From NCBI GenBank assembly GCA_052055015.1, contig JBQJIT010000027.1: a DNA stretch of 52,580 nt. The stretch is one strand, 5' to 3'. Both the position numbers and the translations under genes were made by a program. Under the pieces are notes generated by a model. The model did not search any database. It was not told the DNA's origin and worked only from the letters and a program-made list of their open reading frames with translations. How positions within the stretch are numbered: position 1 is the first letter of the stretch; each line of letters opens with the position of its first letter. Origin of the DNA: Malassezia furfur. Its lineage: Eukaryota. Shown here one piece after another: positions 400-47,557 of the stretch.

Positions 400-2075
400 A
401 TGGCCGAACCACAGGTGGCCTACGCGCAAGACGAGTACGGCAATCCCTTCATTGTCGTGCGCGAGCAGGGGAAGAAGACGCGTGCGCAGGGCACGCAGGC
501 GATCAAGGACCATATCCAGGCGGCGCGGACGGTGTCGACGATTGTGCGCACCTCGCTGGGTCCGCGCGGTCTCGACAAGATTCTGATCAGCCCGGACGGC
601 GATATCCAGGTGACCAACGATGGTGCGACGATTATGGCGAATATGGAGCTGGAGCACCAAATTGCGAAGCTGCTCGTCGAGTTGTCCAAGAGCCAGGACG
701 ACGAGATTGGTGACGGAACGACCGGTGTCGTGGTGCTGGCCGGTGCGCTGCTCGAGCAGTCCGAGGCGCTGATTGACCGCGGCATCCACCCCATCCGCAT
801 TGCGGACGGCTTTGAGCGTGCGTGTGACCTGGCCGTCGAGGCGATCGAGAAGAGCGCCGACACCGTCGAGTTTGACCGCACGCACATCGACGAGCTGCTC
901 AAGGTCGCGAAGACGTCGCTTGGGAGCAAGATGTACGTCGCGCCTGTACTCACCCAGTGTCTCGAAAGCGTCCGACAAGTTTGCGCGCATCGCGATCGAC
1001 GCGGTGCTGAGCGTCGCCGACTTGGACCGCCGCGACGTCGACTTTGAGCTGATCAAGGTCGACGGCAAGGTGGGTGGCGCGCTCGAGGACTCGGCACTCG
1101 TGCACGGTGTGGTGATCGACAAGGACATGTCGCACCCCCAGATGCCGCGCGAGATCCGCGACGCGCGCATCGCGATCCTGACGTGCCCCTTCGAGCCGCC
1201 GCGGCCGAAAACGAAGCACAAGCTGGACATTAGCTCCGTGGAGGAGTACCGCAAGCTCGAGGAGTACGAGCGCAAGACGTTCGAGGGCATGATCCAGAAG
1301 ATCAAGGACGCCGGCGCGAACCTGGTCGTGTGCCAGTGGGGCTTTGACGACGAGGCGAACCACCTGCTGCTCCAGCACGAGCTGCCGGCCGTCCGCTGGG
1401 TGGGCGGCCCCGAGCTCGAGCTGATTGCGATCGCGACCAACGGGCGGATCGTGCCGCGGTTTGAGGACCTGTCTGCGGACAAGCTCGGGCACGCCGGCAT
1501 CGTGCGCGAGGTCAGCTTCGGCACGACGCGCGACCGGATGCTGGTGATCGAAGAGTGTGCCAACTCGCGCGCCGTCACGGCGTTCCTGCGTGGCTCGAAC
1601 AAGATGATTATCGACGAGGCGAAGCGCGCGCTCCACGACGCGATGTGTGTGGTGCGCACGCTCGTCCAGGACAACCGCGTGGTGTACGGCGGTGGTGCGG
1701 CGGAGATCTGTGCGTCGTTGGCCGTCGCGCAAAAGGCGGACGAGATTGCGTCGATTGAGCAGTACGCGATGCGCTCGTTTGCGCAGGCGCTCGATGCGAT
1801 CCCGCTCGCGCTTGCGGAGAACAGCGGGTTGGCGCCGATCGAGAACTTGGCGTTGGTCAAGGCGAAGCAGGCCAACGAAGGGCTGGCGCTCTACGGCATC
1901 GACTGTATGGGCAAGGGTGTATGTACAGCTGCAACTGACACAGACAAACGACATGAAAGAGTGCCGTGTGTTCGACCCGCTCGTGTCGAAGCGGCAGCAG
2001 TTCCTGCTCGCCACGCAGCTCGTGCGTGCCGTGCTGAAAATCGACGACGTGATCCAGGAGCATGCAGTGGAGTAG
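400..2075 (+). CDS. CCT5: T-complex protein 1 subunit epsilon (CCT chaperonin), 3 exons
   Basis: [15 protein letters not shown]-terminus; [28 protein letters not shown] and [16 protein letters not shown] motifs. Three ORF pieces are joined by 25-nt GT-AG introns at 933-957 and 1919-1943. Confidence 0.95.
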
Positions 2076-2163
2076 ACCTAGTCCAAAAAAATTTCGCTCG
2101 GTCGGCCGACCTACTAGGCCCCGCGGGCGCGACGCGTCGACGTGTTCTTTCGGCCTTGGTGCG

Positions 2164-4110
2164 ATGGCGGACGCCGAAGCGAAGAAGCACGCGCGCGAAC
2201 CGAGCGCGGACGTGTCGTCGGACGACGATGACATGGGGCCCATGCCCATGCCCGCCGGCGACGGCAGCGGCACGGCCAAGGACACGGAGCGGGCCAAGCG
2301 GCGCAAGACGCTGCAGTACGAGCGGCTGTACCTCGACCAGCTCCCGAGCGCCGACCGCTACGCCAAGTCGCTCATGCACCGCGACACGATCAACTTTGTG
2401 TCGGTCACGCGGCACACGGCATTCCTGATCACGACGTCCGTCGACGGCCACGTCAAGTTCTGGAAGAAGCAGGCAAGCGGCATCGAGTTCGTCAAGCACT
2501 ACCGTGCGCACGTCGCGATGATTGTCGGCGCGTGCACGAGCGCCGACGGTGCGTACTTTGCGACGATCGCGGCGGACGGCACGGTCAAGGTGTTTGACGT
2601 GCTCAACTACGACCTGATCAACATGATCGAGCTCCCCTATACCCCCCGCGCCTGCTGCTGGGTGCATCGCCGCGGGCGGGCCGACATTGTGCTCGCCATC
2701 GCCGAGGAGAACTCGCCGAACGTGCACTTCTACGATGGGCGCGGCGACGGTACCCCGACGCACACCGTGTCGCACATCCACCGCGAACCGGTGCACATCC
2801 TCGAGTACAACGAGCCGTACGACTGCATCGTCTCGGCAGACGTCGGCGGCATGCTCGAGTACTGGCAGCCGACGGAGCCGTACGGCGTGCCGCCCAACAC
2901 GTTCACGCTCAAGTCTGCGACGGATCTGTTTGAGTTCAAAAAGCGGCGCACTGCGCCCACGACGCTCACCTTCTCGCCCGACTTTGCGCAGTTTGTCACC
3001 GTCTCGATGGCCGACCGGCAGGTGCGCGTGTTTTCCTTTGCCAAGGGCAAGCTGCTGCGCCAGTACGACGAGTCGCTTACGGCCGTGCAGGAGATGCAGC
3101 AGGCGGGCACCACGGCATACGCACTCGATGACATGGAGTTCGGGCGCCGGCTGGCGGTGGAGCGCGACTTGGATGCAACCTACCTCGCCGGCCTCGCCGA
3201 TGCCACGGCGAACGCGTCCGGCGCGGGCACCGCCAACGCCGTATTTGACGAGAGCGGCCACTTTGTCGTGTACCCAACCATGCTGGGCATCAAGGTGATC
3301 AACCTCACGACAAACAAGCTCAGCCGCCTGCTCGGCAAGGACGAGACGGTGCGTTTCTTGCGCCTGGCGCTGTATCAGGGCGTGCCGGACAAGAAGGTGG
3401 CGACGAGCATCGACCTTGCCGCGTCCGAGAACCCCCTCGTGCAGAAGAAGCAGGAGCACGACCCAACGCTCTTTTGCTCTGCCTTCAAGCGCGCGCGCTT
3501 CTACATGTTTACGCGCAGCGAGCCGGAAAACGACCCCAACTCGAAGCTCAGCGGCGCCGACCGCGACGTGCTCAACGAGAAGCCCACGCGCGAGGAGCAG
3601 GCGGTCGCCACGGCCCCGGCCGAGACCAAGCCGAAGCAGCAGATCACCGCCGCGACGCTGCACACGACCGTCGGCGACATCCACCTGCGTCTCTTCCCAG
3701 ACAAGACGCCCAAGACGGTGGAGAACTTTGTGGGACTCGCCAAGAAGGGCTACTACGACGGTGTCATCTTCCACCGTGTCATCAAAAAGTTTATGCTACA
3801 GACCGGCGACCCGCTCGGCGACGGTACAGGCGGCGAGAGCCTGTGGGGCCGCGAGTTTGAGGACGAAATCGTGCCGGAGCTGCGTCACGACAAGCCCTAC
3901 ACGCTCAGCATGGCGAATGCGGGGCCAAACACCAACGGCTCGCAGTTCTTTATCACCACCGTGCCCACGCCGTGGCTCGACGACAAGCACACCGTGTTCG
4001 GCCAAGCGACGGGCGGCCTCGAGGTCATCCACAAGATTGAGCACACGCCGGTGCGCCGTGGTGATCGGCCGATCGACCCGATTGAGATCTTCAGCATTTC
4101 CCTTCGATAG
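2164..4110 (+). CDS. WD40-repeat + cyclophilin peptidyl-prolyl isomerase (PPWD1/Cyp15 type, spliceosome-associated)
   Basis: N-terminal WD40 region (SLMHRD..., [18 protein letters not shown]) and C-terminal cyclophilin domain ([52 protein letters not shown]). Confidence 0.93.
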
Positions 4111-4184
4111 ACTCACGTTCTCCACAGTAGTCAATTTGGGCCCATTTCGCGGATCGGCCACCTCCGGGTTCCCCTCCACACGGC

Positions 4185-12716: not shown

Positions 12717-12843
12717 TAGCAACCAACAATGCTTTGTATTGTACTCGACTATCTCGACGGCCACACGAACTACCACCGGCCAGCGCCATGCTTACGTAAG
12801 CAACCAGGTCCATAAAAAAAACCCGGCCAGAGGCCGGCAGTAC

Positions 12844-13030
12844 GGTGCTCGTCGCAGAGCGGGAGTGTAAGGCAAAGGACAAGCTGGAGTGGCACAAGCA
12901 AGCTCGTGCTCTACTCCCCGCGTCGAAAAAGATGGTTAACGTTTAAGTCTCCCCAGAGGGGAGGGTTACAAGCGTTAACTTGTAAAGAACAGATACTACA
13001 CTTGATCTAAGCCAAAAGGCCAGAGAAGGT
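12844..13030 (-). ncRNA. U2: U2 spliceosomal snRNA (about 187 nt)
   Basis: Minus strand reads ACCTTCTCTGGCCTTTTGGCTTAGATCAAGTGTAGTATCTGTTCTT, the U2 5' end with the GUAGUA branch-point recognition sequence. Stem IIa TTACAAG/CTTGTAA, IIb CTCCCC/GGGGAG, IIc complement CGTTAAC, stem III GGAG..GAGCTTGCTT..CACTCC, stem IV GCTTGTC/GACGAGC ending ACC. Confidence 0.96.
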
Positions 13031-13058
13031 GAAGAACCACAGAAGCGGGGGAGGCGGG

Positions 13059-19777: not shown

Positions 19778-19860
19778 GTTCCGGTAGCTCAGGGGTAGAG
19801 CGGCAGATTGCAATATGCAACTACATCTGCAGGTCGTGCGTTCGAATCGCGCCCGGAACT
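19778..19860 (+). tRNA. tRNA-Cys(GCA) with 11-nt intron (19814-19824)
   Basis: Acceptor GTTCCGG/CCGGAAC, D-arm GCTC/GAGC, anticodon stem GCAGA/TCTGC with TT-GCA-A loop, T-arm GTGCG-TTCGAAT-CGCGC, T-run downstream. Confidence 0.92.
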
Positions 19861-20015: not shown

Positions 20016-20471
20016 TTACACATTCGAACGATCATGCTGGTCTGGGAATGGGTTTTCCATTCGGGCCTTTTCAATGGCGGGGTTCAAACCTTTGATGTGG
20101 ACAGCTTGCTAGAAATGGTCAGTAAAATGGATAATGGAAAACAAAATACGTACCTTCACGCACGCTTGGTATTCAGCAAACAATTTTCCACAATCGTGCT
20201 CATAGCGCTCCCGTAGCACAGCGAGATGTTGTGTCATCCGGTTGCTCCCAGAAGACAGACGCGGAAATCCACTCGTCCAAGAACCCTTCGCAGGTGTTGC
20301 ATTGGTATCAATATATTCGGAAGATGCATCGAGGTAATCCTTGAACCATGCGTTGAAGCACCGATCGTAGGTGTGCTTGAGCGGCGTGCATTCCGGAGAG
20401 AGGGAGTCCATCAGTCCCAATGACGCGGATTCATTGGGAACTGTTGACTCGCCAGCTGCACCAGAAGACAT
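20016..20471 (-). CDS. MDM35: Mitochondrial intermembrane lipid-transfer partner Mdm35/TRIAP1, 2 exons
   Basis: Twin CX9C (SLSPECTPLKHTYDRCFNAWF ... CGKLFAEYQACVK). 45-nt intron at 20109-20153, then exon QAVHIKGL...NV*. The start could alternatively be 20411. Confidence 0.85.
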
Positions 20472-28574: not shown

Positions 28575-28809
28575 TCGACATATGTATGTCCTTTGTCGTC
28601 TCTAGAGTTCGTGAATCCGGTTCGCATAAAGAATAGTAAAGCGTAGATGCGGGTGCATATTCAAAGTTTGGTTTTGTCCCACAGATGCTGCACGTGTACA
28701 TGGCCCGTGCATGCATTGTACTAAATTTGGCTTACTGCAACACAGGTTACCCAAGATGCAGTGCACATAAAAGGCAGAGCATCTACGTCTATTCTTTGCC
28801 TATCCCGCA

Positions 28810-30429
28810 ATGGTCAGTGCGCAGTGGGTTTGTGCCATTGCCACGGTTCTTGGAGTATCGTTTGCTACCAAAGACGGCTCGATTCAGCCAGGCCATGGCT
28901 TTGTGACATCGCTAGAAACTTTCCCGGACAATGTCGTGAGCACGGGTGAGGTAGCTCCTGGTGCACCTCCTTTCACCGCCCAATACGACAAACTGAATTC
29001 CACGAAGCCTTTTGGTCCCTATGGCATTGAAATGCGATATGTTCCCATGGATGCGGATGAGGACAATGCAACTGCTGCAGACATTTTTACTAACTTGGGT
29101 CCTTACACTCCATGGCGACCGAGTACTCTGTTTCCAGAGACAAGAGCTTACCAAGTTGTACCCAAGCATTGCAAAGTGAAACAAGTGCACATGCTCTACC
29201 GCCATGGTGCTCGCTACCCCACGGATGGTGCTGATGAGGGACCTGGCCTGTTTGGTGCAATGGTTAGGAATGGGACGCGCGACAACAGTTTCCGGGCAAC
29301 AGGCGATTTGGAATTCTTGAACAACTGGAACTACAGTCTGGGCCAGGCGTTGCTGGTTCCCCAAGGTGCGCAAGAAATGTTCGACGCCGGCGTTCAGACC
29401 TATTACGCGTATGCTAAGCTCTTGGAGAATACCACGCAAAAGCTGGTAATTCGTACGACTACGAGCAGTCGTGTTTTGGACTCTGCTCGTTACTGGGCGC
29501 TTGGGTTTTTCGGATGGGATGCGTCTTCCAAAGTCGATATAGAGGTGCTCCCTGAGGCCGACAAGCAAAACAACACGCTGGAGCCCAAGTACAGCTGCCC
29601 AAATGGCAAGAAGTTTAGCTTTGGTGATCAACTTCGAAAAGAATGGCAAGAAGTCTATCTTCAAGAACCTTTGGACCGTTTGCAGCAAAACATCGAAGGT
29701 TTGAACTTGACAATTGATGATGTTGCCAACATCATCTCGCTGTGCCCTTATGAGGTCTCTGGCCAGGGTTATTCTCGTTTCTGCAGCCTTTTCACCAAGA
29801 AAGACTGGGAGAACTATGAATACGAGCACGACCTAAAGTTCCAGGGCAACAATGGATTTATGAACCCGACTGGCAAGGCCATGGGTATTGGCTACGTCAA
29901 TGAGTTCTTGCAACGCATTACCAAGGGAAATTTCAGTGCGCCTCAAACTACCCAGAATGCCACCTTGGACAACGATCCCACCAAGTTCCCTCTCAATCAA
30001 TCCCTTTACGTGGACTTTACGCATGACACGGTCATGGTGAGCATTTTGACCGCCTTCAATTTCACCCAGTTTAGCAAGCCGCTGAGCTCGAGCAGTGTAT
30101 TGAATGGTCGCAACTTCCGTGCAAGTGCGGTGGTGCCCTTTGGTGGTCGTGTCGCATTTGAAGTTCTTGAATGCGATGGATCCCAGGCTCCCAGCGACTA
30201 CATCCGGGTCAAGGTTAATGATGCAATTCTTCCTCTGGATGAGGGACAGGGGTGCTCAAAACGGCCGGATGGACTTTGCAAACTTGACGATTTCATTGCC
30301 TACGCCCGGAAGAACGCAAACGATGCAGCACAATTCGAGTTGGCCTGCTATGGACAAAACGGGACGGACTTTACTGTGACGGGACCGGTATCTGGTGGTA
30401 CACTAGAGTCGAATCAAATCCATAATTAA
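28810..30429 (+). CDS. Secreted histidine acid phosphatase / phytase, copy 2
   Basis: Signal peptide, HMLYRHGARYP, YVDFTHD; collinear with copies 1 and 3. Confidence 0.92.
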   Translation: MVSAQWVCAIATVLGVSFATKDGSIQPGHGFVTSLETFPDNVVSTGEVAPGAPPFTAQYDKLNSTKPFGPYGIEMRYVPMDADEDNATAADIFTNLGPYTPWRPSTLFPETRAYQVVPKHCKVKQVHMLYRHGARYPTDGADEGPGLFGAMVRNGTRDNSFRATGDLEFLNNWNYSLGQALLVPQGAQEMFDAGVQTYYAYAKLLENTTQKLVIRTTTSSRVLDSARYWALGFFGWDASSKVDIEVLPEADKQNNTLEPKYSCPNGKKFSFGDQLRKEWQEVYLQEPLDRLQQNIEGLNLTIDDVANIISLCPYEVSGQGYSRFCSLFTKKDWENYEYEHDLKFQGNNGFMNPTGKAMGIGYVNEFLQRITKGNFSAPQTTQNATLDNDPTKFPLNQSLYVDFTHDTVMVSILTAFNFTQFSKPLSSSSVLNGRNFRASAVVPFGGRVAFEVLECDGSQAPSDYIRVKVNDAILPLDEGQGCSKRPDGLCKLDDFIAYARKNANDAAQFELACYGQNGTDFTVTGPVSGGTLESNQIHN

Positions 30430-30789
30430 CTATCGTAGTTTCCAGTAGATTCAGATTTGGGATGTTTGTGCATGGTTCAAGCATGGACCTCACGAGGTGA
30501 GCGCATGTCCACGTTTCAATTAATTGGGATGGGGCGTGCGTGGGGGCTTAGTAAAGTTTCTTTGAAAACCAAATATAGGTATGCGATGCATCCCCGCATC
30601 CTTTGAGTTTATCCGTTATATGACACAACTGATTGGCATAGGCATGAGCGCAAGCGCACGTGTGCAGACCATGCAGCGAAACCTTCCTTAATCAAAGCCC
30701 AATGTATTGTCAACGCTTCAAGCCAAACAAGGGCCGTACTTAAAGAGCTGCTCTTCTCTGGGTTTCCAGTCATAGCCTGCGCCTTCAAG

Positions 30790-32397
30790 ATGGTCTCTGC
30801 GCTCGCTCTTCTGCCCTTCGTGTGCATTGCCGTGGCCAGCGCTCAGTCGGCGACGCCAACCAACTGGAACAATGTGACGGGCACCACCAGCGAGGCGTTC
30901 CCCACGGATGTCGGTTTCTTGGGCACCATGGCGTATGGCAAGACCCCGTTCCTCGCGCAAGATGACAAGATCAACTCCACCAAGTCTTTTGGTAGCTATG
31001 GTATTGAGACGCGCGAGCTTCCGTTGAACGGTGACCAGGACAACGCTACCTCTTCCGACATTTTCCGCAACCTGGGTACCACATCGATCTACCACCCGGC
31101 TGACGATCTGTTCCCTGAGACGCATGGCTACGAGATCCTGCCTGACCAGTGCACGGTGAAGCAGGTGCACATCCTCCACCGTCACGGTGCCCGTAACCCG
31201 ACGAGCGACACCCACGAGGGTGCACCTCTGTTTGGTGCTGCTGTCTGGAACGCGACCCAGGCGGGCAACCTTTCGGCTACCGGTCCTCTCGAGTTCCTGA
31301 ACTCGTGGAACTACACGCTCGGTGCCGAGGTGCTTGTGCACCAGGGTGCGCAGGAACTGTTTGACTCGGGTGTGAAGCACTACTACCAGTATGCTAAGCT
31401 CCTTGAGAACCTTACGGACCACAAGCCCGTTATCCGCACGACGTCGCAGAGCCGTATGCTGGACTCGGCGCGCTACTGGACGCTTGGCTTCTTCGGCTGG
31501 GATGCTCCCACGAAGGTCAACCTGGAAGTTCTTACGGAGACCCAGGGCCAGAACAACACGCTGGCCCCCTATGAGTACTGCACGAATGCCGACAACTCGT
31601 CTTTCTACCTCGGCGACCAGATGAGCACCGAGTGGCAGAAGGTGTACCTGAAGGACGCCATCCAGCGTCTCCAGGGTGACCTGAAGGGCATTGAGCTGGA
31701 CGAGACGATGGTGTATGGTATGATGAGCATTTGCGCCTACGAGACGGTCGTGATGGGCTTCTCCAACTTCTGCTCGCTCTTTACGAAGGAGGAGTTTGAG
31801 AACTACGAGTACGACATCGACCTGCAGTTCATGGGCGACTACGGCTTTATGAACCCCACTGGCCGCGCTCAGGGTATCGGCTGGGTCGTGGAACTGCTGG
31901 ACCGCATGAACATGACCAAGTTCGATGGCCCCGTTACGGGTCAGAACACCACGCTCGATGAGAACGAAATGTACTTCCCTGTGGACCAGATGCTCTACGC
32001 CGACTTCACCCACGACGATGTCATTACTTCGGTTCTGACTGCACTGAACTACACGCAGTTCAGTGAGTTCCTGCCTACCACGCAGCCGAACCCCAACCGT
32101 CGCTACCGCTCGAGCCGCGTCACTCCCTTCGCGGCTCGCCTGGTGTTCGAGGTGCTTGACTGCAACTCTACCGACCTGCAGGGCTCGTACGTCCGCACGA
32201 AGATCAACGATGCGGTGATCCCCATGAACCAGGACCAGGGTTGTGAGGCGCGTCCGGACGGTCTCTGCAAATTCAACGACTTCTGGAAGCACCAGTACCA
32301 GAACGCGTACAAGGACTCCAAGTACGACCTGGTGTGCTTCGGGCAGAACGGCACCGACTTCGTCGTTACCGGACCTGTCCGCAACGGCACTGTTTAA
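30790..32397 (+). CDS. Secreted histidine acid phosphatase / phytase, copy 3
   Basis: Signal peptide, HILHRHGARNP, YADFTHD. Confidence 0.92.
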   Translation: MVSALALLPFVCIAVASAQSATPTNWNNVTGTTSEAFPTDVGFLGTMAYGKTPFLAQDDKINSTKSFGSYGIETRELPLNGDQDNATSSDIFRNLGTTSIYHPADDLFPETHGYEILPDQCTVKQVHILHRHGARNPTSDTHEGAPLFGAAVWNATQAGNLSATGPLEFLNSWNYTLGAEVLVHQGAQELFDSGVKHYYQYAKLLENLTDHKPVIRTTSQSRMLDSARYWTLGFFGWDAPTKVNLEVLTETQGQNNTLAPYEYCTNADNSSFYLGDQMSTEWQKVYLKDAIQRLQGDLKGIELDETMVYGMMSICAYETVVMGFSNFCSLFTKEEFENYEYDIDLQFMGDYGFMNPTGRAQGIGWVVELLDRMNMTKFDGPVTGQNTTLDENEMYFPVDQMLYADFTHDDVITSVLTALNYTQFSEFLPTTQPNPNRRYRSSRVTPFAARLVFEVLDCNSTDLQGSYVRTKINDAVIPMNQDQGCEARPDGLCKFNDFWKHQYQNAYKDSKYDLVCFGQNGTDFVVTGPVRNGTV

Positions 32398-32606: not shown

Positions 32607-32974
32607 ATGGCTGGCTCTGACGCTGCTAAGAAGGTTTCGAGCTGGAAGAAGGTGTATGTACTGTGCCGATAAGACTAGTATGCTAACAACAGTGCGCCCG
32701 TTGAGGTTCTGCCGATCATCTTCCTTACCGGTTTCGCTCTCGCTGGTGCGGGCTGGTACTTGACCCGCCTTGCCCGTGGTCCGGAGGTGATTTGGGACAA
32801 GAAGGTAAGCAGCGACCGTGGCAAAAAGACCTAACCCCAGAACAACCCCACTCCGTGGAACTCGATTGAGCCGGGCACCCAGTACAAGCTGTACAACATC
32901 AACGTACGTGCCGTCTGGGAGACTAACGACTTCAGGGTCAATTCGACAAGACGTACAAGCGCGACCGGCTCTAA
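32607..32974 (+). CDS. NDUFA4/COXFA4-like (B12D family) small single-TM mitochondrial protein, 4 exons, 86 aa
   Basis: Removing introns 32654-32692, 32805-32840 and 32904-32935 gives MAGSDAAKKVSSWKKVAPVEVLPIIFLTGFALAGAGWYLTRLARGPEVIWDKKNNPTPWNSIEPGTQYKLYNINGQFDKTYKRDRL*. Confidence 0.85.
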
Positions 32975-33074: not shown

Positions 33075-34514
33075 TTAATACACGTATGGGATGATACGAT
33101 ATGGCACACGCTTGCACTGTGGTCAGTTTGGGCAGTGGTACATACGTAAGTGTCCCAACTGTGGCCCCGCGAGGGGTGTGCGTCAGTATGTCGAGCGTGT
33201 GTACGTACTCGGCTCCATATTTCTTCTTGCATGCTTCGTCGTCACGCAGCTGGCGGTGGACCAGGAGAATGGCGAAGTACACGACATAGAAGTACGGTAT
33301 GGGTGATCCAAACCCACAGGTAAGGCACCATGCCCAGGCCATGAGCCAATCGCCCAGATAGTTCGGGTGACGGCTCACGCCCCACCAACCGGAGATGAGG
33401 AGCTTGCGCCCCGTTGAGGTCGTCATGAATTGCAGGTTCTTCGGGTTGTGTCCCTGGCGGAAATCGTTCTTCTCGACGTTGGCCGTGCGGAAGATGTAGT
33501 ATCCGACCAGCTGCACGGCCAGGATGGCCAACACGCCGATCGTGCCGAGACGCACCGGCTCGAACGCAAGGTAGCGCGCTTGGAGTGAATAGGTAAAGGG
33601 CACCCAGACTAGGTCTCCGACGCTTAACATGAAACCGAACCCGTCCGTGGTGATGTCCATCTGGGAGAAGATGGTCTCCTCGTGCAGCAGGGAGTCCACC
33701 ACGTACCAGCTGTGGAAAAACAGAACAAGCCACATGCTGTCGGACACGTATCCAAACTGGGTGTGCTGCCAGCACGCACAGCTGGCGTCCACAAGTACCC
33801 AAAGGATAAGACCCGGGCGCAGCTCGTTGAACGTCTTGATATCAAATAGACCAATGCGGGGGTTGAGCTCACGACCGATGAACCACTGTGGTGAGGCAGA
33901 GGAGACGTACATCATACACGACATTGCCGGTGTTTCCGCCCAACGCAAGAAGCTTGTGACCGTAGAACGAGGCCACATACACGTACACGGCTTGTGCGAT
34001 GGAGTTGACCAGTGCGACACTCAGAAGGCCGAGCCAATGGTCGTACAGGATGGTGAAGCTCGCCGGTCCGTACACAGCAATGTATCCTGCAGCAGCAGCT
34101 AGCGCAACGAGACCCGTAGCCAGTGCTGTGTGAGCCATGCCACTTACCGTTTGTCTTGTACTCCAGCTGGTGGCCCGTCCGCAGCGGCAGGCCCTTGACC
34201 CACTTCCCTGGCAAGAAGTACCAGGCGAGAACGCAGTAGAGGTACCAGCCAGTGTATAATGCCCATGCCGTGCCATCGGTAAAACTAGCACCCAAGGTCT
34301 CACGCACATACTCCACGAAGGCATCCGTGTTGCTGACAGGGAGCGACAGCGCACATCCCAGTACATCGTTGCATCCGAGCGCGAAGTAGTACGCAGTCAA
34401 AGGCACCGTCGTCGAGATGAACAGCGCGCCGGCGAATCCGCCGAACTCGACCTCGGTGGTACGCGGTGCAAGAACGTTTTTGGCCGTCGTCTGGCTTGCA
34501 GGTGCGGCAGTCAT
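33075..34514 (-). CDS. ERG24: Delta(14)-sterol reductase, 5 exons
   Basis: EFGG, FIGRELNPRIG, ELRPGL, DITTDGFGFML, LLISGWWGVSRHPNYLGD, and [23 protein letters not shown] after splicing. Introns at 34126-34147, 33886-33910, 33159-33208 and 33117-33145. Confidence 0.93.
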
Positions 34515-34625: not shown

Positions 34626-36344
34626 ATGTACTGTCCGGGCTGGTTGTGGGTGTGGGGTTTGTGGCTGCTCGGATCCACACAGGCTCTCTCACTTCGACAG
34701 CATACATTTGCTGTGGATGATGCGACAGAAACAGAACATCGCATCCCCAAGTGCCCATCGAATGACACGTCGCCACTTTTGCGGGTGGCAATTATTGGCG
34801 CCGGGCCGTCCGGGACCAGTGCCGCGTATTTTCTTAGCACGGCCCAACGGCAGCTTGCCAAGCATGGCATCCCCGGCTGCGACATGGAGGGAATACAGAG
34901 CGAGCTACAGGTGACAGTGTACGAGCGTGAGGAGCGCGTGGGCGGACGTGTGCTTGCCGTGCACCCGCTCGATGACCTCCGGCTTCCCCCCGTGGACATT
35001 GGTGCGAGCATCTTTGCCAATGTGAACCACAATCTGGTCCACGCGGCAGACAAGTTCCGACTCCGGCAAACGAGGCCGAGTTCCAAGGTGTTTGGCCCTA
35101 TGGGGCTATGGGATGGCCAAGAATTCATCGTGGACGATTTCGACGGATCGCGGTGGAGCCAATGGAAACTGTACTGGCGCTACGGAAAGGGCCCGCAGAA
35201 GGCCATGTCTTTGTACGTGACATGCTGACGCAGAGTCGAAGAGGCTATGAAATCCTTCCAGCGCATCTATTCGCCACGATTCTTGCATGACCCTGCGTCG
35301 GATGCTGGTTATCCTTGGCCGAGCGTTGCAGCGCTCGCAGACCAAATTGATGCGCGCGGTCTTGTCTCGCAATCGGCGCGCGCCTACTTCGCCGACAACA
35401 AAGTGTCAGAAGCATGCATGGACGAGCTGATCAATGCTGCGACGCGCGCCAACTACGCCCAGGAAATCCAGAACATCCATGCGTTTGCTGGTCTGGTTTC
35501 AATGGCGACCAATGGCCCCAACGGGGTCCAAGGGGGCAACGCACAGATCTTCCAACATATGCTAGATCGCAGCACTGCCACGGTGTATCGTGGAGCAAGC
35601 GGAGAAGTGACAGGCATCATGAAGATCCAATCCGAGACGACCGAACAAGATGCGCCTATCACGCAGTGGCGCATCGGCACGCGGGACGGCCACAGCGACG
35701 TTTATGATGTGGTGCTGATCGCGGCACCGTGGCACAGCTCCGACATCACGCTGCTGAATACGGAGAAATCCGTGCCGGGCTTTCGGTACCAGCGACTCTA
35801 TGTGACGTTGGTGGTGACGGACGCACCGCAGCCAGATCCGGTCTATTTCGGCTTTGACCGCACCTTTGACCGTGTGCCCCGTACGATCGTCACGACGCAC
35901 CTCGAAGGAAATGGGCCCGACTTCTTATCACTGTCGTACCAGCGGCGCTTGAAGCACGCCAAGTACCAGGGCCGGACGTGGGATGCACTGTACGTGGTGA
36001 AGCTCTTTTCCTGGGCACCCATACCGTCCAAGACCCTCGATAAGATCTTTGGGAATGGCCAGGTGGTCTGGACGCACGAAAAAGCCTGGTCTGCGTTCCC
36101 CAAGCTCACGCCGACCGACCGGCTGGGCGACTTTGAGGTGGACACCAATCTCTACAACGTGAATGCGATGGAGCGGCTCATTTCCACGATGGAGACAAGC
36201 ACGCTGGCGGCGAAGAACGTCGTGGCTCTCGTGCTGCAGAAATGGCTCGGGTCGCACTTCGTGCACGGGGCACGGTGCAAATGGACATCGCATACACCGG
36301 ACGTCGCTACGGAGTGGGACTCGTGGGGCTGCCAAAGCAGCTGA
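34626..36344 (+). CDS. Prenylcysteine oxidase / farnesylcysteine lyase-like flavoprotein, 2 exons
   Basis: Signal peptide, RVAIIGAGPSGTSAAYFL, VYERE.RVGGR, DIGASIF, RANYAQ, VQGGNAQIF and ISTMETSTLAAKNVV. The 21-nt intron at 35213-35233 contains an in-frame TGA. Confidence 0.88.
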
Positions 36345-36412: not shown

Positions 36413-36964
36413 TTAGAAAGTACCGCGAGTGACCTTCTCGAGCACTGTATATAAGTCCCTGTCCATGTCAACGTACCAGCATCGTAGGACACCTCACTGA
36501 GATCCGTGCCCTGGATCTCCGCAGCGATACCCACGAGAGCCTTGCGGAGCGCGTCCTTCGACGAGGCATAAAGCATCTTTTGCTTCACCTTCGACTCATC
36601 GGGGGACCTGCGAGGTTAGCATCACGTTCTTGTCACCCGCCGTCGGTCGGTACGTACCACGTCACAAACACAATCTTGTTTCGCATGCCCTCATCGCCCT
36701 TTTGGTACTCAAAGTCGTAAACAGCGTAGCGGCACTCCGCGGCGGGGAGCTCCGCAAGGAAGTCATCGTAGTTCGTCGATTCGCTGGTCTTGGCGACCAC
36801 GATTTCCGTGTTGTCCGGCGAGAGCGTGTAAATGATGTAGCGGATCTTCTTGCCCAGCTTCAGGGCCTGGAACTGCTCCAGGCAGTCCTGGTTCACTTTC
36901 ACACCAGAGGACTGTTATGCGTTAGCATATGATCGACCAAGGCAAAAATCTATCGACGCACCAT
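36413..36964 (-). CDS. COF1: Cofilin, 4 exons
   Basis: [23 protein letters not shown]...[11 protein letters not shown]...[27 protein letters not shown]. Introns at 36912-36961, 36608-36657 and 36445-36476. Confidence 0.95.
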
Positions 36965-37241: not shown

Positions 37242-37336
37242 TGTGGCTAGCCGGAATCGAACCGGCGTCTCATCGGAATTGTTGTGTTTGACAAGCAAGC
37301 CACAACGATACGTACTGACCACTATACTATAGCCAC
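37242..37336 (-). tRNA. tRNA-His(GTG) with 23-nt intron (37277-37299)
   Basis: Minus strand GTGGCTA/TAGCCAC acceptor, TAGTATAGTGGTCAGTAC D-arm, TATCG-TT-GTG-G...C-CGATG, GCCGG-TTCGATT-CCGGC, A discriminator, then a T5 run. Confidence 0.9.
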
Positions 37337-40477: not shown

Positions 40478-41452
40478 TTATTCCTCCCTACGACTCGAGC
40501 GCAGGCGGGCTTCGGTCGCCGCGCGGATCGCGTCACGATCGGGTACCGAGCTCGGCTTGGCCCGTGCGGTACCTGCGGCGGTGCCGGTCGTTTGGCCCCG
40601 TGCTCCGAGTGGCCACCACGACGAGGGCCACCAGCTCGACGTACCCGGCTGCGGCGCGCGAGCAGTATACGCTGTCCCGTACGATCGCGATTGTATCCGC
40701 GTGTTACCCGCCAACAGTCGCCGGACGCGAGGCGGCGTGACCAGCCAGGGCTGGATGTATTTGATGAGCACCGCATCCAAATTCGCGCGGCGCCCAAGCG
40801 AGTTACCCGGGCGAAGGCGCGCATAGCGGATATAGTTCCACACAAACGCAGATGCCAGACCGGTCGCCGCCTCCAGCATCAAGGCCGGGCCGCCGACGAC
40901 CAAATCGATGAGAAGGTTGGCGTACGGCAGATACTTGGCGGGCAGCGTCACTGCTCCCATCAACGAGACTTGCGCCTCGGGAATCCGCGCGGACCACACG
41001 TACTGTGTCAGCCATTCCAACATACAGTAAGCGCATTGAGTAAGGCATGGAAAAGGATGAGGCTCCGCAGGGGGTAATTCAGTGCCTGTGTGAAACATGC
41101 ACGTACCACAATCATGCAACTAATCACGAAAAGCGCCCACGTATAGTCTGCTGTGTCGCCCATCAGTCCATTCTCAAGTTCAGAGGAGGTTCGACTGAGT
41201 TAGAGCATCACATACTAGAGAAACAGGGTGTTGAGCAAAAGGGAAATTCCGTTTCCCCCGTACAGGAAGGATGTCACCAGACGCCAGACCTGGCCTTTCC
41301 GCCAAATCAGCGGCCAAAACAGCACAAAGCGATACGGAGTTGTGATTCCGAGCAGGCATGGCAGCGTCACAAATGCCTCTCCCACAAGCAATGCACGCGT
41401 CACGGGTGGCAACGAGCGACTAGGTTAGCCGGGTCACGTACATGACATCCAT
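40478..41452 (-). CDS. Derlin (Der1/Dfm1-like ERAD membrane protein), 5 exons
   Basis: MDVIRSLPPVTR...QVWRLVTSFLYGG...LYRTSSELE...ADYTWALF...YVWS...PAKYLPY after removing introns 41420-41441 (22 nt), 41195-41215 (21), 41086-41106 (21) and 41003-41025 (23). Confidence 0.87.
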
Positions 41453-41498: not shown

Positions 41499-42483
41499 AT
41501 GGGTGACGCAGTAGTGAACAGTTTCCGGTTGAACCGCGTGATCAATGAAGGTACGCTGCGCACTCACCAGACCCCCGCGCCAAAACCATCAATTTGCTAG
41601 GTGCATGCGAGATCAATGGCCAGGTTGCGCCTGCCGTCCTGCTCTTGGAACGTGCGTTCTATCCCGAGTCATTTGTGGAATCGATGAAGCACGGACCACA
41701 AGAGGCATTTTCCCGCCTGGAAACGATCGGCCAGAATGATGTGTATACATGGGTACTTGGTTACCAGAAGGATGGAAGCCAAGGTGGAGCGCACTCGAAA
41801 CTCACGCTGATCTGCCCTGCCGGAAACGAGGTGGTGGAAAAGTACAGTGCGCATGAGCGCCGCATGATCATCGAAACACCTCAGCTGTATGAAAAGGTGA
41901 CCGCCCCTTGGATTGAATCCATACCAAGGTCCAAAACGCAGTGGGTCCGCAACATCCTGGACGGTGTGTCCGAGTCAGAGTCGGTACTATACCGCGACGA
42001 CGACCCCAAGAGTGGGTTTGTGCTTACTCCGGACCTCAAATGGGACCAGCGAACCTTGAGTTCCTTGTATCTGGTGGCCATTGTCAAGGACGAATCTCTG
42101 ACGAACTTGCGTGACCTAACCAAAGAACAAATTCCTTTGCTCAAGAAGATCAAAGCAGCTGCGGCCAAAGTGGCCACCGAAAAGTATGGGCTGAGCGCAC
42201 CGAGCGAGGATGGCATCGAGTCGTCGCTGCGCTGCTACATTCACTACATGCCTACATTTTTGTATGTATTTGCTACTTATGACCTAGCCACCTTCATGTG
42301 CACATCCTGTCGGTCAACTTCATCTCGCATCCCGGGGCCATTGTCGGACAGGCCCAGCTGCTTGAGGATGTCATTGGCCTTCTCGAGGCAGGCGTGGACT
42401 TCAAGAAGCGCACGCTAGGCTATCAGCTGACTGAGGGACACGCCCTGTTGAAAGAGCTGCGGAAATATAACGCGAGCACATAG
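41499..42483 (+). CDS. DCS1: m7GpppX diphosphatase (scavenger decapping enzyme DcpS), 3 exons
   Basis: FRLNRVINEDP, NDVYTW, KLTLICPA, PDLKWD, and the HIT motif HYMPTFFHLHVH, which is restored only by splicing 42262-42287. First intron is 41551-41570 (20 nt). Confidence 0.92.
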
Positions 42484-42601: not shown

Positions 42602-42687
42602 GACCCTATAACTCAGTTGGTTAGAGTGTGGAGCTAATACCCTCTTGTGTTACTCCAAAGTCGCCAGTTCGAGCCTGGTTAGGGTCA
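42602..42687 (+). tRNA. tRNA-Ile(AAT) with 12-nt intron (42640-42651)
   Basis: GACCCTA/TAGGGTC acceptor, ACTC/GAGT D-stem, TGGAG-CT-AAT-A...A-CTCCA, GCCAG-TTCGAGC-CTGGT, downstream T6. Confidence 0.92.
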
Positions 42688-42831
42688 AGCTTACTTTTTT
42701 GGAATATATTTTTCTGACGTACAAACCGAGTTGGACCCCACACGGCCGTGCGCCCCCCTTTACGTACGCAACTGCCCAGAATGCAAAGTAACTAGCAATG
42801 TCTAGTGGCACAATGGTTATTCAATATACAG

Positions 42832-43534
42832 CTATTTTTCAGGACTTGACTCAGTCTTCACATTGTCGCTTGCCTCGGTCGTCTTCGGCTTGGTACTCGG
42901 CTGGGATTCTGTGTTTCTCAGCTCTTTTGGAGGCTGAGATTCATGTTTCGGCTTGTCCGTGCTGCTCTCTTTTGTAGATTTCCGCACAATTCCCAATGCT
43001 GAGGCCCCATCGCGCTTTCGCTTTGCGCTCATTGCTCGTGGCTTGCCTTTGGGAGGGGAGGGGCCAGACTCTTGCTTGTTCACACTAGGCGGAGTTGGAG
43101 CTACCTTGCTCTCTGCCGCTCTGATCGTTAGATCAATATTATACATACTTCCTGAATGCTTGCAAAGCGGCCTCTTCTTCTTTCCGGCGTTCTTCGTCAC
43201 GGCGTTTTTTGTCCCGTGCAATGTCCGCAAGAAACATGGTTTCCGACTCGTCCAAACCACGGTATTGATTCGCAAGTCGGAACATGTCATCCATCTCTTC
43301 CTGTTTCCGATCTTGTTGTTCTTTAAGACGCTGAGTTAGTCAAACTGCCTACCTCGTAGAGTGGACGAGGGTCATATTTGTCCTCGTACGGCGCACGTTC
43401 GGGAGGTTCCTGTCCAATCCTGATCGTGAGCTGAATATCACATACCATTCATACACCTCTTTCAGCTCTTTTTCACGCTGTTTCTTCTCGTCGTCGACAT
43501 TGTCTTGGCTGACGAAGCGCGACGGTGCGCTCAT
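42832..43534 (-). CDS. Fyv6/FAM192A (PSME3IP1)-like protein, 4 exons
   Basis: SRFVS...[42 protein letters not shown], the family N-terminal signature, after splicing 43420-43445, 43331-43352 and 43121-43148. Confidence 0.8.
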
Positions 43535-43592
43535 CGTTGCACTATGCTGAGCCCGATCTAATCGGGCAAAGTTTCTAGACATCTTGCATGCA

Positions 43593-46500
43593 ATGTCGTC
43601 CGATGCCTTAGGCATCGCTGGCGCATTGCAAGCGGAATCGGATGCCGAAGATCGCGAGCTCGTACGGTTTGAGAATGCGGAGTCCTATTTTGCGAAGCAG
43701 TCCGAGCTTCTGGCCGCAGAAGTCCAACGGTCGGAGCGTGCCGGACCATTGCTCGAGGAGCTTGTGCGAGAGGTACGTGTCGTATTAACTCCAGATCCAA
43801 GTATACCAAGAACAAGCCTACTTGCTAGATCCATACCTGGAGCGTCTTGTGGATCCACCAGCATCCATGCTGCAAAATGAAGTCAAACATCATGCCTCGT
43901 CCTGGGCTGCACCTGATGTGGAAAGACTAGGCCACTACTGCCGTCTCCTTTACGTGTATACCAAAGTTCGGGGCTATAAGGTTGTGTGTACGTGATAAAT
44001 GCTAAAGAAAGCACGCTTTTTACCGCACGAAATTGGCGACATGCTGCCACTCCTTTCTCTCTTGGAACAGTTGCAGAGAGACGTACAGGCAGGCCGCTCC
44101 GTGCCTTGGGAAGTTTCCTATATTCTCCTTTTGTGGCTTTCCCTGGTGGCATTGATTCCCTTTTCACTAGGAGAAAGTGCAACCAGCGATGCTCCGTTTG
44201 ATCGGATGGAAGGGATTGCGCGGTATTTTATCACGCGACCCGGCAAGGAGCGCGACGCAGCAAGCGTACTTCTTGGAAAGCTTTATTGCCGTCGAGATGT
44301 CTCAAAAGCACGTATGACATCCCTATTTACATGGGCCCAGGAGCGCATGCGGGTAACACACTCCTCGTTTGAAGCCACCGGTATTCTGCAAACGTTCTGT
44401 GCGATCGCCAAGGCAATCGACTCGTCCTTCGCGTGCAGGCATATGTCCGAGTTGCAGTCGCTTCTTATGCTTTACGACCCATGGAGCCAAAAAAGCATGT
44501 CTGTGGACCGGTTCCGGACCAAACTCGCTGGTCGCCTTGCGTTGCAGCTCCTCGCGGTCGATCCGGAGTGTGAATGGCTGGGGGATTTTGTGAATACCCT
44601 TCTTTTCGCTCTAGGGCATGCGGTACGTTCCATTCTTTCTTACACAGGATTCACGCGTGCGCTTTAGTGCGGCGAAAAGTCTTGCCAGGATAGCGGCACG
44701 CGTCTCGGAGGAGATGCGGACGCAACTGATCGAGGCGCTGCTGGAGCAACTCGCCGAGAATGCCCAGATGGACAATGCGCTCTTGGATGAAATGGCAAAT
44801 GCCACAGTGCAGACATTTTCTCCGTCACTTGTGCGCGCACTGGATGCATACGATATGTATGCCGTGTCGGACAGCACATGGCATGGCGTATTTTTGGCGC
44901 TTGCCGAGTGTATGCGCCGCACGCTTGTACCAACCTCCTTGTTATGCCGTGTGATGTACTGGGTCCATCGGGGCCTTCTTTTCGATATTCCTCGCGGTGC
45001 GGGCGCCGCGGGCAGCAATGTCCGAGACGCGTGCTGTTATGTGTTATGGGCGTTGGCTCGGATACGTCAAGTCGACCTACTTGCCCCATTCACGCAGAGT
45101 GTCGCGCAACGCCTGTTGGTGGTCGCCACGCTGGATCGCGAGACCAGCATTCGCCGTGCGGCTAGTGCTGCCTTTCAGGAATGGGTGGGTCGGACGACGT
45201 TTGTTCCGTATGGCATCAAAGTTCTTCGCGAGACCGATTTTGCAGCAGTGGGTGTGTTGCGGCATGCGTACACCGTATGCGCACCCCGTGTGGCTGAGTG
45301 CGACGTATATCGGGCGCCTCTCCTTGCACATCTTCAACACGTATGCCTGTCCCACTGGGATGTACACATTCGCCAACTTGCGGCGACGGCCCTCGAAAAA
45401 ATTCTCGCTCACGAAACGTCGTGTGTCTCTGGGGTAATTGAGGTCCAGATCCGCGCGGCACAATCCATGGACACAAACAAAGTCCACGGCGCTTTGCTTG
45501 CGCTGGCCGCGCTTAGCCCTACGTTCATAAGTGCGACGCAGGGTTCCCAGGTGCTGAATGCCACATTGGCATTACCACCTCGTCTCTTTTTGACGCCGGG
45601 TGGTGCATCGATCCTGGAGGCCGCATGTCGCGTCATTGCGGCTGTAGCCCCTCTGGCACGCGGGGCAAGCCTGTCCTTGCTCCAAACCGCCGCGGCGCGG
45701 CCCGAGGGAGCGATTCACGAGGCGGTAGCAGCCGCAATCGATGCACTCGGAGATGACGACGTGGTGGAAGCATTTGTGACACGGCTCTTGAATACATGGA
45801 CAACTTGTACTCCCGAAGAACAGCGCAGTGGCGCCTTGGCACTGGGCAACAAGAGTACAAAATGGGCCGAACGGCGACGGTTACTCTTGTGCGACGCTGT
45901 GCAGAGCATCCACGGTGAAGACGTCGAGACGCGGCGCAACGCTGCGGCTGCTCTCCCTGCAGTGGTATGCGGATCCGCTGAGGAGACACACCGTGTTATC
46001 AATGCTTTGCTGGGTGGACTGCAAGATCACACCACTGACCAGCGCGGCGACGTCGGTTCCTGGGTCCGTGCGCAGTGCCTGGAATCCCTGCTTCAGGCAG
46101 TGCAACAAGCTTCGCAGCTAATTGACTTGCCAACGGTGTGCACAGCAATCAGTGCGAGTGTGGTGGAACGTATTGATTCCGTCCGCAGCACGGCTTGTGT
46201 AGTGCTACGCGACCTGGCTTGTCATCATTCCGTGCCGGCGCGTGATGCTGTGCAGCGTGCACTTGACGCGCCGGAAGCCACATTCCGTGACGCACGTACG
46301 GCATTTGCTCGCGTTGTTCCGCTGCTCTCCGAGGATGCGTACCGAGTGGCGATGCTCCCGACGCTAACGCGCACGATCGCGAGTCGTTCGGAATCGGCGG
46401 TGCGTTACTTCTTTTTTTTTTGCGTGCTCACTCAGCTTCGGGATGCGGGGCAAGCATTGGTGGATTGGCTATCTGATGCGGATCGTGCGATGGTGGATGC

Positions 46501-47077
46501 TGTGTATGCGGATCTCTTGGTACTGGCACAGCGTCATGTGCGTGACAACCGTGTGATCGTCCCTGTGTTGCAGACCATGCAGCACCTACTCGAATGGGAC
46601 ATTTTGCCCGGTAACGGGGCCATGTATGTTGTCATGCTGACGCAGTCTGGACCGGCTAGTGCGTGTTGCAACGGCGTACGTGGCGACGCTGAAGAGCGTG
46701 CCGCGGTTGACTGTGTCGATACACATGTACGTCTACGTGTCTTACCCAGTACCGTGCAAGCTCTGCGCATCCCCCGCGTTCGTGCGCGTGCGCTCGCGAG
46801 TCTCGGGGCCTTTCTGACGCACCGGTATCCAGCGATTCGGATGAATGCCAGCGAACAGCTGCTGTTTCTACTACAATCCGAAAGCACGTCCGACGAGCTA
46901 TTAGAAGAGCGTCTATTGAGTACGCCGTGGTGCGTCACCAAAAACTCACGCAGGGCTTCCGACGATTCGGACCATCTCGCGGAAGCATCCGCGACCGTGG
47001 TTAAGGCGTTGACGAAGATGCTTGAGCACCAGTTGGGGGAGGGGGATAGGGGAGATGATATGGTATCCAGTTCCTAG
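43593..47077 (+). CDS. Tubulin-folding cofactor D (HEAT repeats), about 8 exons
   Basis: YQEQAYLLDPYLE, KVRGYK, RFLPHE, LLLWLSL, VRFSAAKSLARI, NVRDACCYVLWA, DRETSIRRAASAAFQEWVGR, DQRGDVGSWVR. Introns at 43773-43794, 43988-44011, 44623-44647, 46400-46435, 46624-46645, 46727-46749 and 46930-46953. Confidence 0.9.
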
Positions 47078-47080
47078 ACG

Positions 47081-47557
47081 TTACTCGCTGAAGAACGCCC
47101 GCAGTGTCGACTCGGCCTCGTTATACTGCTCCTTGACCTGCTTCATGGTCTGAACGAGCTTTTCCATGGCCTCCTCTTTCGTCAGCTGCGTCACGCCGTC
47201 TGCGTCGTGCTGTGTGCCGTAGTGCTGCATCGTCTCGCAACTGTCGCGCACCTTGATGACACCGACGGCGGCCGACGAGCCCTTGAGGAAGTGACCAAGC
47301 GTCGAGAGCTCTTCGAGGTTCTCCTTCGCACTGGATTAGCCGATGAGCACGTACAGGGCATTGTTCATCTTCTCAAACGTCGACTCGGCCTGCTCGAAGT
47401 AGTTGTATACCAGGCTCTTGCTGAAATCGCGATCGTCCTCCTCGTCCATCTCCAACAATTGGTCGAAGACTTCTACATCAATCACGTCTGGCGGAAGTGA
47501 CGAGGCATCGTTGGCGGCAGGCTGGGTGAGGGGGACACGTACGGCATTTGCGCTCAT
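47081..47557 (-). CDS. YPD1: Histidine phosphotransfer protein
   Basis: FDQLLEMDEEDDRDFSKSLVYNYFEQAESTF and LGHFLKGSSAAVG (phospho-His). Introns at 47331-47354 (24 nt) and probably 47522-47542 (21 nt). Confidence 0.93.

Follow-up and report, generated by a model that had tools for sequence, protein, structure and literature searches.

Can introns of only 20-25 nucleotides (nt) be ordinary spliceosomal introns in a fungus? The question is raised by a 52,580-nt stretch of DNA from the skin yeast Malassezia furfur (contig JBQJIT010000027.1; hereafter, the window), whose guanine-plus-cytosine (GC) content is 59.7%, and in which an earlier note had listed 19 GT-AG segments of that size. All 19 are indeed present, 10 on the plus strand and 9 on the minus strand (Table 1). 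They are hosted by eight housekeeping genes, and their removal opens one frame through every junction. By their Pfam families, the host genes encode a CCT5-like chaperonin, the sterol C-14 reductase ERG24, a prenylcysteine oxidase-like protein, the derlin DER1, the scavenger decapping enzyme DCS1, a FAM192A/Fyv6 (NIP30)-like protein, the tubulin cofactor D (TBCD), and the phosphotransfer protein YPD1. We consider it highly probable, on the evidence of the DNA and its homologues, that the 19 segments are ordinary U2-type GT-AG introns of M. furfur or a near-identical strain, which have been reduced to near the minimal workable length.

The source of the DNA was assessed from its proteins. The best named match of the DCS1 exon is the M. 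furfur protein CBS14141_000268 (P0280), with a reported identity of 100% over the best local alignment; in the full alignment of P0280 with the DCS1 of the window, one residue differs. The next-best named matches for TBCD, DER1, and DCS1 are all from Malassezia species. Judged by these matches, the window is from M. furfur or a very close, near-identical strain.

The assignment to the U2 type draws on several features: GT and AG ends and a donor of the form GTRNGY in 19 of 19 segments, a branch-like YTNAY motif in 18, a colinear protein after removal in 18, and positions that are shared with relatives or lost in them. The lengths are 20 nt (one segment), 21 nt (four), 22 nt (five), 23 nt (two), 24 nt (three), and 25 nt (four). 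The donor is GTACGT in 11 segments and GTATGT in 4, i.e., GTAYGT in 15 of 19; GTAAGT, GTACGC, GTAGGC, and GTGCGT occur once each, and all conform to GT[AG]NG[TC]. The branch-like motif is CTNAC in 15 segments, and TTCAC, TTAAC, CTAAT, and a CTAAA variant make up the others; the A of YTNAY lies 4-6 nt from the 3' end in the 18 segments that have this motif, the 19th being the one with CTAAA. The acceptor is CAG in 17 segments, TAG in one, and AAG in one.

The geometry of the segments is narrow. The donor hexamer is separated from the branch pentamer by a spacer of 6-10 nt, whose minimum of 6 nt is reached in six introns. Of the 18 introns scored for the stretch from the branch A to the 3' end, 15 have 5 nt, one has 4 nt, and two have 6 nt. 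The branch A is consequently found at intron position 16-20, the gap between the branch motif and the YAG is 1-2 nt, and a segment of 20-25 nt has no space for a polypyrimidine tract. A donor of 6 nt, a spacer of 6 nt, 4 nt to the branch A, and a further 4 nt add up to a minimum of 20 nt, which matches the DCS1 intron, the shortest of the set. In the TBCD intron at 43988-44011, an AG located 2 nt past the likely branch A is bypassed, and the AG at 6 nt is used, as the homologues demand.

The U2 small nuclear RNA (snRNA) gene is itself encoded in the window, at 12840-13032 on the minus strand (Rfam RF00004, 124.4 bits); it is full length and includes the canonical GUAGUA branch-binding box. Introns of the U12 type, with a [AG]TATCCTT donor and a TCCTTAAC-like branch, were considered and rejected, as TATCC is found in 0 of the 37 donors identified in total (see below). 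The U2 snRNA gene is flanked by a Na/Ca-exchanger-like gene and by an aspartate-semialdehyde dehydrogenase gene.

We then consider what retention of these segments would do to the proteins. Twelve of the 19 lengths are not a multiple of 3, and retention would cause a frameshift. Among the seven that are, four contain an in-frame stop (those starting at 35213, 41195, 43988, and 47331), and three would be read through (41086-41106, 46930-46953, and 47522-47542). That is, 16 of the 19 retentions give a frameshift or a stop, in line with the claim that most of the introns are required.

To assess the junctions by homology, the spliced products were aligned with homologues, and exons were searched separately against Pfam to see whether the profile coordinates run on across the junction. 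In addition, metagenome contigs were scanned with a DCS1 alignment, which identified six Malassezia-like loci. The gene order ERG24, prenylcysteine oxidase, DER1, DCS1, Fyv6-like, TBCD, YPD1 is conserved in these loci as far as the contigs extend. In three of them (L003, L005, and L006), DER1, DCS1, the Fyv6-like gene, TBCD, and YPD1 are each a single uninterrupted open reading frame (ORF). The prenylcysteine oxidase gene is also uninterrupted in L005. Of these loci, L002 and L005 carry ERG24, and in both it is uninterrupted at the two listed positions. Alignment with these intronless ORFs using tblastn results in one high-scoring segment pair (HSP) per gene, e.g., one spanning TBCD residues 19-1085. 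Junctions in L003, L005, and L006 were scored by gaps within +/-8 residues; the N-terminal introns 41420-41441 and 47522-47542 are too terminal to be scored in this way. All scorable junctions fall within one HSP with 0 gaps, except for 1-residue gaps near 46624-46645 and 43121-43148. When the spliced proteins of the window are aligned with these ORFs, no gap falls on a junction itself.

Overall, 16 of the 19 introns are confirmed by uninterrupted orthologous ORFs, two (those in CCT5) by profile contiguity, and one is undecided by homology. The assertion that intron removal restores conserved proteins is therefore supported for 18 of 19, the exception being 47522-47542. Individual genes provide further detail. 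In TBCD, 7 of 7 junctions are gap-free relative to 10 full-length homologues, the best named of which are from M. vespertilionis (50%), M. nana (47%), and M. caprae (45%); retention of 46930-46953 would add an 8-residue insertion that is absent from these 10 homologues and from L003, L005, and L006. In DCS1, splicing creates the motif EDPRAK..NLLG at the junction, and of the 4 homologues (among 17) that lack the motif, 3 are truncated or read-through models; the junction peptide that had been predicted, RVINEDPR, is the conserved one in the homologue alignment. The YPD1 exons match residues 43-85 and 90-167 of PDB entry 8pbw_B, with exon residue 54 at position 85 and next-exon residue 3 at position 90, i.e., exactly contiguous and in register with the split codon. 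Among the 13 representatives of the prenylcysteine oxidase, the one with extra residues at the junction (P0129) is a truncated, 393-residue read-through model.

Table 1. Introns in the window. Set A, the 19 introns of 20-25 nt listed in the earlier note; set B, 18 further introns. The last column gives the length of the intron at the same position in locus L002.
Gene	Position	Strand	Length (nt)	Set	Observations	L002 (nt)
CCT5-like	933-957	+	25	A	Cpn60_TCP1 1-132, split codon, 135 at next-exon residue 2; retention shifts frame	
CCT5-like	1919-1943	+	25	A	Cpn60_TCP1 446 at residue 317/320, 451 at next-exon residue 2: contiguous, 449 to 450	
UPF0203 (Mdm35-like)	20109-20153	-	45	B	model only	
Cytochrome c	21288-21336	+	49	B	model	
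Cytochrome c	21474-21517	+	44	B	model	
Cytochrome c	21529-21630	+	102	B	model	
Cytochrome c	21642-21680	+	39	B	model	
RPL5	25128-25182	+	55	B	right behind ATG; model	
B12D/NDUFA4-like	32654-32692	+	39	B		
B12D/NDUFA4-like	32805-32840	+	36	B	B12D 39 to 40 across junction	
B12D/NDUFA4-like	32904-32935	+	32	B		
ERG24	33117-33145	-	29	B	with 33159-33208, restores C-terminus	
ERG24	33159-33208	-	50	B	followed by 13-nt micro-exon 33146-33158	
ERG24	33886-33910	-	25	A	Pfam ERG4_ERG24 185 to 186; gap-free vs L002, L005 ORFs	
ERG24	34126-34147	-	22	A	gap-free vs L002, L005 ORFs; Pfam 109 to 115 over 6 residues	
Prenylcysteine oxidase-like	35213-35233	+	21	A	in-frame stop; gap-free vs 12/13 representatives and L005	25 (same codon)
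Cofilin	36445-36476	-	32	B		
Cofilin	36608-36657	-	50	B	Cofilin_ADF 77 to 79 across junction	
Cofilin	36912-36961	-	50	B		
DER1	41003-41025	-	23	A	gap-free vs L003/L005/L006	
DER1	41086-41106	-	21	A	in-frame, stop-free; gap-free vs L003/L005/L006, which lack the 7-residue insertion	
DER1	41195-41215	-	21	A	in-frame stop; gap-free vs L003/L005/L006	25
DER1	41420-41441	-	22	A	past 11th coding base; spliced MDVIRSLPPVTRA aligns with MDLVQSMPPVTRA of L003/L005 ORFs (MAFFT)	
DCS1	41551-41570	+	20	A	shortest; yields ..RVINEDPRAKTINLLG.., motif in 13/17 aligned homologues and in L003/L005/L006 ORFs	
DCS1	42262-42287	+	26	B	restores HIT motif ..YMPTFFHLHVHIL..; in P0280; gap-free vs homologues	
FAM192A/Fyv6-like	43121-43148	-	28	B	1-residue gap 5 residues downstream vs intronless ORFs	
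FAM192A/Fyv6-like	43331-43352	-	22	A	gap-free vs L003/L005/L006; FAM192A_Fyv6_N profile 45 is first residue of next exon	26 (second position)
FAM192A/Fyv6-like	43420-43445	-	26	B	alignment to intronless ORFs	29 (first position)
TBCD	43773-43794	+	22	A	intron 1; gap-free vs 10 homologues and L003/L005/L006	23
TBCD	43988-44011	+	24	A	AAG acceptor, CTAAA branch; in-frame stop; gap-free vs homologues	
TBCD	44623-44647	+	25	A	gap-free at junction	
TBCD	46400-46435	+	36	B	in-frame; Pfam TFCD_C 95 to 98 contiguous; gap-free	
TBCD	46624-46645	+	22	A	frame change needed; L003/L005/L006 align, 1-residue gap 4 residues upstream	23 (one of two candidates in interval 46624-46749)
TBCD	46727-46749	+	23	A	gap-free	23 (one of two candidates in interval 46624-46749)
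TBCD	46930-46953	+	24	A	in-frame, stop-free; conserved W abuts next exon in 10/10 homologues and L003/L005/L006	
YPD1 (HPt)	47331-47354	-	24	A	in-frame stop; gap-free vs L003/L005/L006	23
YPD1	47522-47542	-	21	A	candidate; past codon 5; in-frame, stop-free; GTACGT, CTCAC, CAG, branch A to acceptor 5 nt	

The relatives differ in whether they carry these introns. Because relaxed tblastn read through the introns of L001 and L002 as gapped, stop-containing insertions, these two loci were judged by other alignments. L002, which is from a different species, has GT..AG introns of 23-29 nt at 8 of the same positions, with diverged sequence and the same signals (Table 1); at 46930-46953, tblastn reveals a stop-containing insertion of 8 codons. 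L003, L005, and L006 have zero introns at the positions covered (for ERG24 and the prenylcysteine oxidase gene, these are covered in L005 only). L001, for its part, has two TBCD introns, of about 29 and about 32 nt, where the window has none. Presence and absence at the same position, together with diverged intron sequence, indicate that these are real introns, unlike assembly errors. Across the seven syntenic genes, one Malassezia-like species (L003, L005, and L006) is devoid of all introns examined, another (L002) shares eight positions or more, and a third (L001) has the two additional TBCD introns, which points to rapid intron loss and gain within the group.

The number of such segments was also compared with the expectation by chance. 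A generic pattern (GTNNGT..CTNAC..YAG, up to 30 nt in total), chosen without tuning to these introns, has 17 matches in the window, versus 3.0 +/- 1.6 (maximum 9) in 200 dinucleotide-preserving shuffles; 16 of the 17 are homology-supported introns. A pattern tuned to the architecture finds 20 sites where 2.0 are expected, and 18 of the 20 are listed introns; the two surplus sites, 26811-26833 and 42675-42694 (the latter overlapping a transfer RNA (tRNA) gene), are as many as chance would produce. A looser pattern is weakly enriched at 20-25 nt (24 vs 13.4 +/- 3.5) and shows no enrichment over the shuffles in the remaining size classes; as a whole, it is too noisy.

How would such introns be removed? 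Spliceosomal removal would proceed via two transesterifications, through a lariat with a loop of 16-20 nt and a tail of 4-6 nt. The CTNAC motif would pair with the GUAGUA box carried by the window's own U2 snRNA. The 6-nt floor of the spacer and the 5-nt distance from branch to acceptor may represent steric limits of the catalytic core, and the branch site and the acceptor may be read as one composite element. Tentatively, one can go further and suppose that the Malassezia spliceosome operates at a hard geometric floor, with the branch A at least 16 nt from the 5' splice site, the acceptor locked 5 nt on, and no polypyrimidine tract; on the geometry of the window we regard this as possible, though less likely than its opposite. 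If it were true, the branch site and the 3' splice site would be a single composite element, and U1 and U2/SF3b could not sit side by side. The class would then be one that the splicing field has overlooked, and one that breaks gene models, as with the 20-nt DCS1 intron and the 60-nt DER1 exon.

The footprints of the U1 small nuclear ribonucleoprotein and of SF3b, which binds upstream of the branch, would overlap on introns this short, which makes reasonable the suggestion of the earlier note that U1 and U2 can hardly occupy such an intron together and that the assembly pathway may be modified. In this alternative explanation, the introns are real but would need a non-textbook pathway, in which U1 leaves before U2/SF3b binds, or in which there is no recognition of a polypyrimidine tract of the U2AF type. 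The argument for it is from geometry alone, that is, from the position of the branch A, 16-20 nt past the 5' splice site, with 1-2 nt between the branch motif and the YAG. Against this, the window's U2 snRNA has a canonical branch-binding box, and functional spliceosomes are supported in Stentor with introns of 15-16 bp (PMC13644364). As a functional spliceosome handles even smaller introns in Stentor, small size alone is no proof of a new pathway. We view a departure from the textbook pathway as doubtful, and ordinary U2-type splicing as the better account.

Several observations weigh against reading all 19 segments as introns removed in the form listed. The M. furfur model P0280 has a frame-preserving DCS1 intron of 50 nt, which runs from the donor at 41551 to an acceptor at 41600, and the acceptor of the 20-nt intron lies only 4 nt past the branch A, the shortest such distance among the introns scored, compared with 5 nt in 15 of 18. 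Similarly, the derlins P0125 (M. yamatoensis) and P0126 (M. brasiliensis) are without the 20 residues of exon 41026-41085; such a form is equivalent to a single 104-nt intron that replaces the two tiny introns. Retention of the three in-frame, stop-free introns would leave the protein unbroken. For one of these three, 47522-47542, the evidence consists of the splice signals, as the N-terminus of YPD1 is not conserved and homology cannot decide. Lastly, Pfam gave no match at E <= 10 for the 8 short exons or read-throughs that were tried alone, including the read-through of DER1 exons 3-4.

The first of these observations would fit a rival reading in which longer introns or exon skipping restore some of the frames in vivo, namely a 50-nt intron at 41551-41600 in DCS1 and a 104-nt intron at 41003-41106 in DER1, which skips the 60-nt exon 41026-41085; the tiny versions would then be of minor use or none. 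Both long alternatives are frame-preserving, and public models use them. The conserved residues, however, argue for the tiny introns. The 50-nt intron of P0280 deletes the decapeptide DPRAKTINLL (30 nt), which is found in 13 of 17 aligned homologues (of the remaining four, three are truncated or read-through models); some of its columns are invariant among the nine sequences of alignment A1, and the uninterrupted ORFs of L003, L005, and L006 contain it. Because DPRAKTINLL is conserved and inside intronless ORFs, the 20-nt DCS1 intron is favored. In DER1, the exon residues ALNYPLRSLILFHALLNALT align with AFNYPLGSPFLFQPLSSALT in the intronless orthologues, and the Pfam DER1 profile stands at 66 where exon 2 ends and at 118 where the last exon starts; the 51 positions in between agree with the four-intron model, which has 50 residues there, and not with the skipping model, which has 30. 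The annotations of the relatives, moreover, were produced with funannotate guided by M. sympodialis proteins, with RNA sequencing (RNA-seq) data 'where available', according to the methods given (PMC10410736). Taken together, these data make predominant use of the long forms improbable.

Errors of assembly or sequencing, or lesions of pseudogenes, are an extremely unlikely source of the interruptions. Apart from the frameshift that 12 of the 19 would cause if left in, nothing speaks for them, given that all 19 start with GTRNGY and end with AG, that 18 have YTNAY 4-6 nt from the end, that seven are multiples of 3, that L002 has introns of other sequence and length at the same codons, that the generic pattern is enriched 17 to 3.0 over shuffles, and that the near-identical M. 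furfur protein P0280 carries the 26-nt DCS1 splice.

The preferred reading, i.e., that these are ordinary U2-type introns of minimal size, has consequences for gene annotation. At least one M. furfur model (DCS1) and the derlin models of two relatives seem to lack conserved residues, apparently as a result of a missed intron of 20-23 nt. Automated gene calls that match the DNA of the window, P0121 (181 residues) and P0279 (274 residues), are truncated or run into introns. A search of proteins restricted by length found no M. furfur TBCD model of at least 1,023 residues. Public models around the tiny introns (P0121, P0125, P0126, P0129, P0279, and P0280) are often cut short, extend into the intron, leave out a small exon, or take a longer intron.

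The earlier note had left it to the literature how new a class of 20-22 nt is. As a trait of the genus, very short introns are already published. 'Very short introns' are stated for Malassezia (PMC7426719), and the M. restricta annotation used min_intron_len = 15 (PMC6473144). In M. sympodialis, there are 5,350 introns with a mean of 30 bp, of which 5,271 (99%) are RNA-seq supported; their sizes are presented cumulatively in Fig. S8 (PMC5389616, Table 2). Intron lengths have a mean of 37.2 and a median of 30 in M. restricta, and of 68.1 and 40 in M. arunalokei (PMC9241646, Table 1). Introns of the same GT-AG kind are thus on record for M. sympodialis ATCC 42132 and M. restricta KCTC 27527, with a mean of 30 and a median of 30, respectively, versus a mean of 32.4 nt and a median of 25 nt for all 37 introns of the window. 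The organism is a Malassezia and its intron lengths are centered near or below 30 nt; the tiny introns belong to the already published, genus-wide compaction of Malassezia genomes and, having been documented in genome papers on Malassezia, open no new category.

As to the sub-25-nt class as such, no published account was found. In the parts of the M. sympodialis and M. restricta papers available, the introns are treated by summary statistics, and neither a 20-25 nt class nor a fixed branch-acceptor spacing nor a mechanism is described. Our literature search found no study of a sub-25-nt intron class or of its splicing mechanism in Malassezia, which is a weak absence, as subscription journals were mostly outside the search. 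Three points seem unreported, namely the rigid minimal architecture, the apparent mis-annotation of some tiny introns in public models, and the potential of M. furfur as a minimal-intron model. The rule that the spacer is at least 6 nt and that the branch A is 5 nt from the acceptor is concrete and testable in a culturable fungus. M. furfur is potentially a tractable fungal model for minimal-intron splicing, being culturable and transformable; Agrobacterium and CRISPR tools exist for it (bioRxiv 10.1101/638429).

Introns of Trichomonas and Giardia have a fused branch-site/acceptor motif, in which both the fixed distance and the conserved sequence are longer. They resemble those of the window in the fixed short distance between the branch and the 3' splice site and in the composite element, but belong to another lineage. 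Comparably short introns are found in other eukaryotes. Those of Paramecium tetraurelia average 25 nt, are spliceosomal, and are among the shortest known (bioRxiv 10.1101/2021.08.05.455221). P. tetraurelia, however, is a ciliate with AT-rich introns, whereas the window has about 60% GC, a strong yeast-like donor, and an explicit CTNAC branch motif. The introns of Stentor coeruleus are shorter and uniform, at 15-16 nt, while those of the window range from 20 to 102 nt (PMC13644364). The same 2026 source lists ciliates, Microsporidia, dicyemids, and myxozoans as lineages with introns below 30 bp, a list in which Malassezia is unmentioned. These lineages and Malassezia are alike in independent intron shrinkage and compact genomes. 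The short introns of microsporidia are reported to be poorly spliced, with a median of about 25% (PMC13644364).

Eighteen further introns, of 26-102 nt, had been missed in the earlier note. Six are in the same genes, four in a cytochrome c gene, three in a cofilin gene, three in a B12D/NDUFA4-like gene, one in RPL5, and one in a Mdm35-like gene. Support at the level of the junction was obtained for 8 of the 18 (six by homology or profile, two by Pfam contiguity), and the other ten are models. Their branch-to-acceptor distance is 5-11 nt, and 24 nt in one. The cytochrome c model has a spliced coding sequence of 108 residues, and its exon 1 matches Pfam Cytochrom_C.

Some of these models include very small exons. 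Micro-exons of 11 nt each are predicted in the cytochrome c gene (21518-21528 and 21631-21641), in addition to that of 13 nt in ERG24. The RPL5 and cofilin models begin with a coding exon that is just the ATG (25125-25127 and 36962-36964, respectively), with an intron directly behind it. Introns of 20-29 nt are found in, e.g., TBCD, DER1, DCS1, YPD1, ERG24, and CCT5; longer ones (32-102 nt), mostly with a CTAAC branch, are found in RPL5, cytochrome c, cofilin, and the B12D/NDUFA4-like gene. The latter four are usually highly expressed genes.

The Fyv6-like gene (42832-43534, minus strand), which matches Pfam FAM192A_Fyv6_N, itself hosts the intron 43331-43352. The Fyv6 protein of budding yeast is described as a splicing factor of the second step, with control over which 3' splice site is chosen (PMC11651659).

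Other features of the window are as follows. Three tRNA genes exceed 80 nt and probably contain introns (19778-19860, plus strand; 37242-37336, minus strand; and 42602-42687, plus strand); ARAGORN named the third alone (Ile, AAT). A C/D-box small nucleolar RNA of the snR60/Z15 family is predicted at 20767-20872 on the minus strand, with 45.1 bits relative to a gathering score of 41. Three tandem paralogues of branch-2 histidine acid phosphatases (Pfam His_Phos_2) occupy 26934-32397 on the plus strand, in ORFs at 26934-28574, 28771-30429, and 30607-32397. The GC content of this stretch is about 50%, versus 60-69% over much of the remaining window, and an identical 32-nt stretch starts in it at 27523 and again at 31346.

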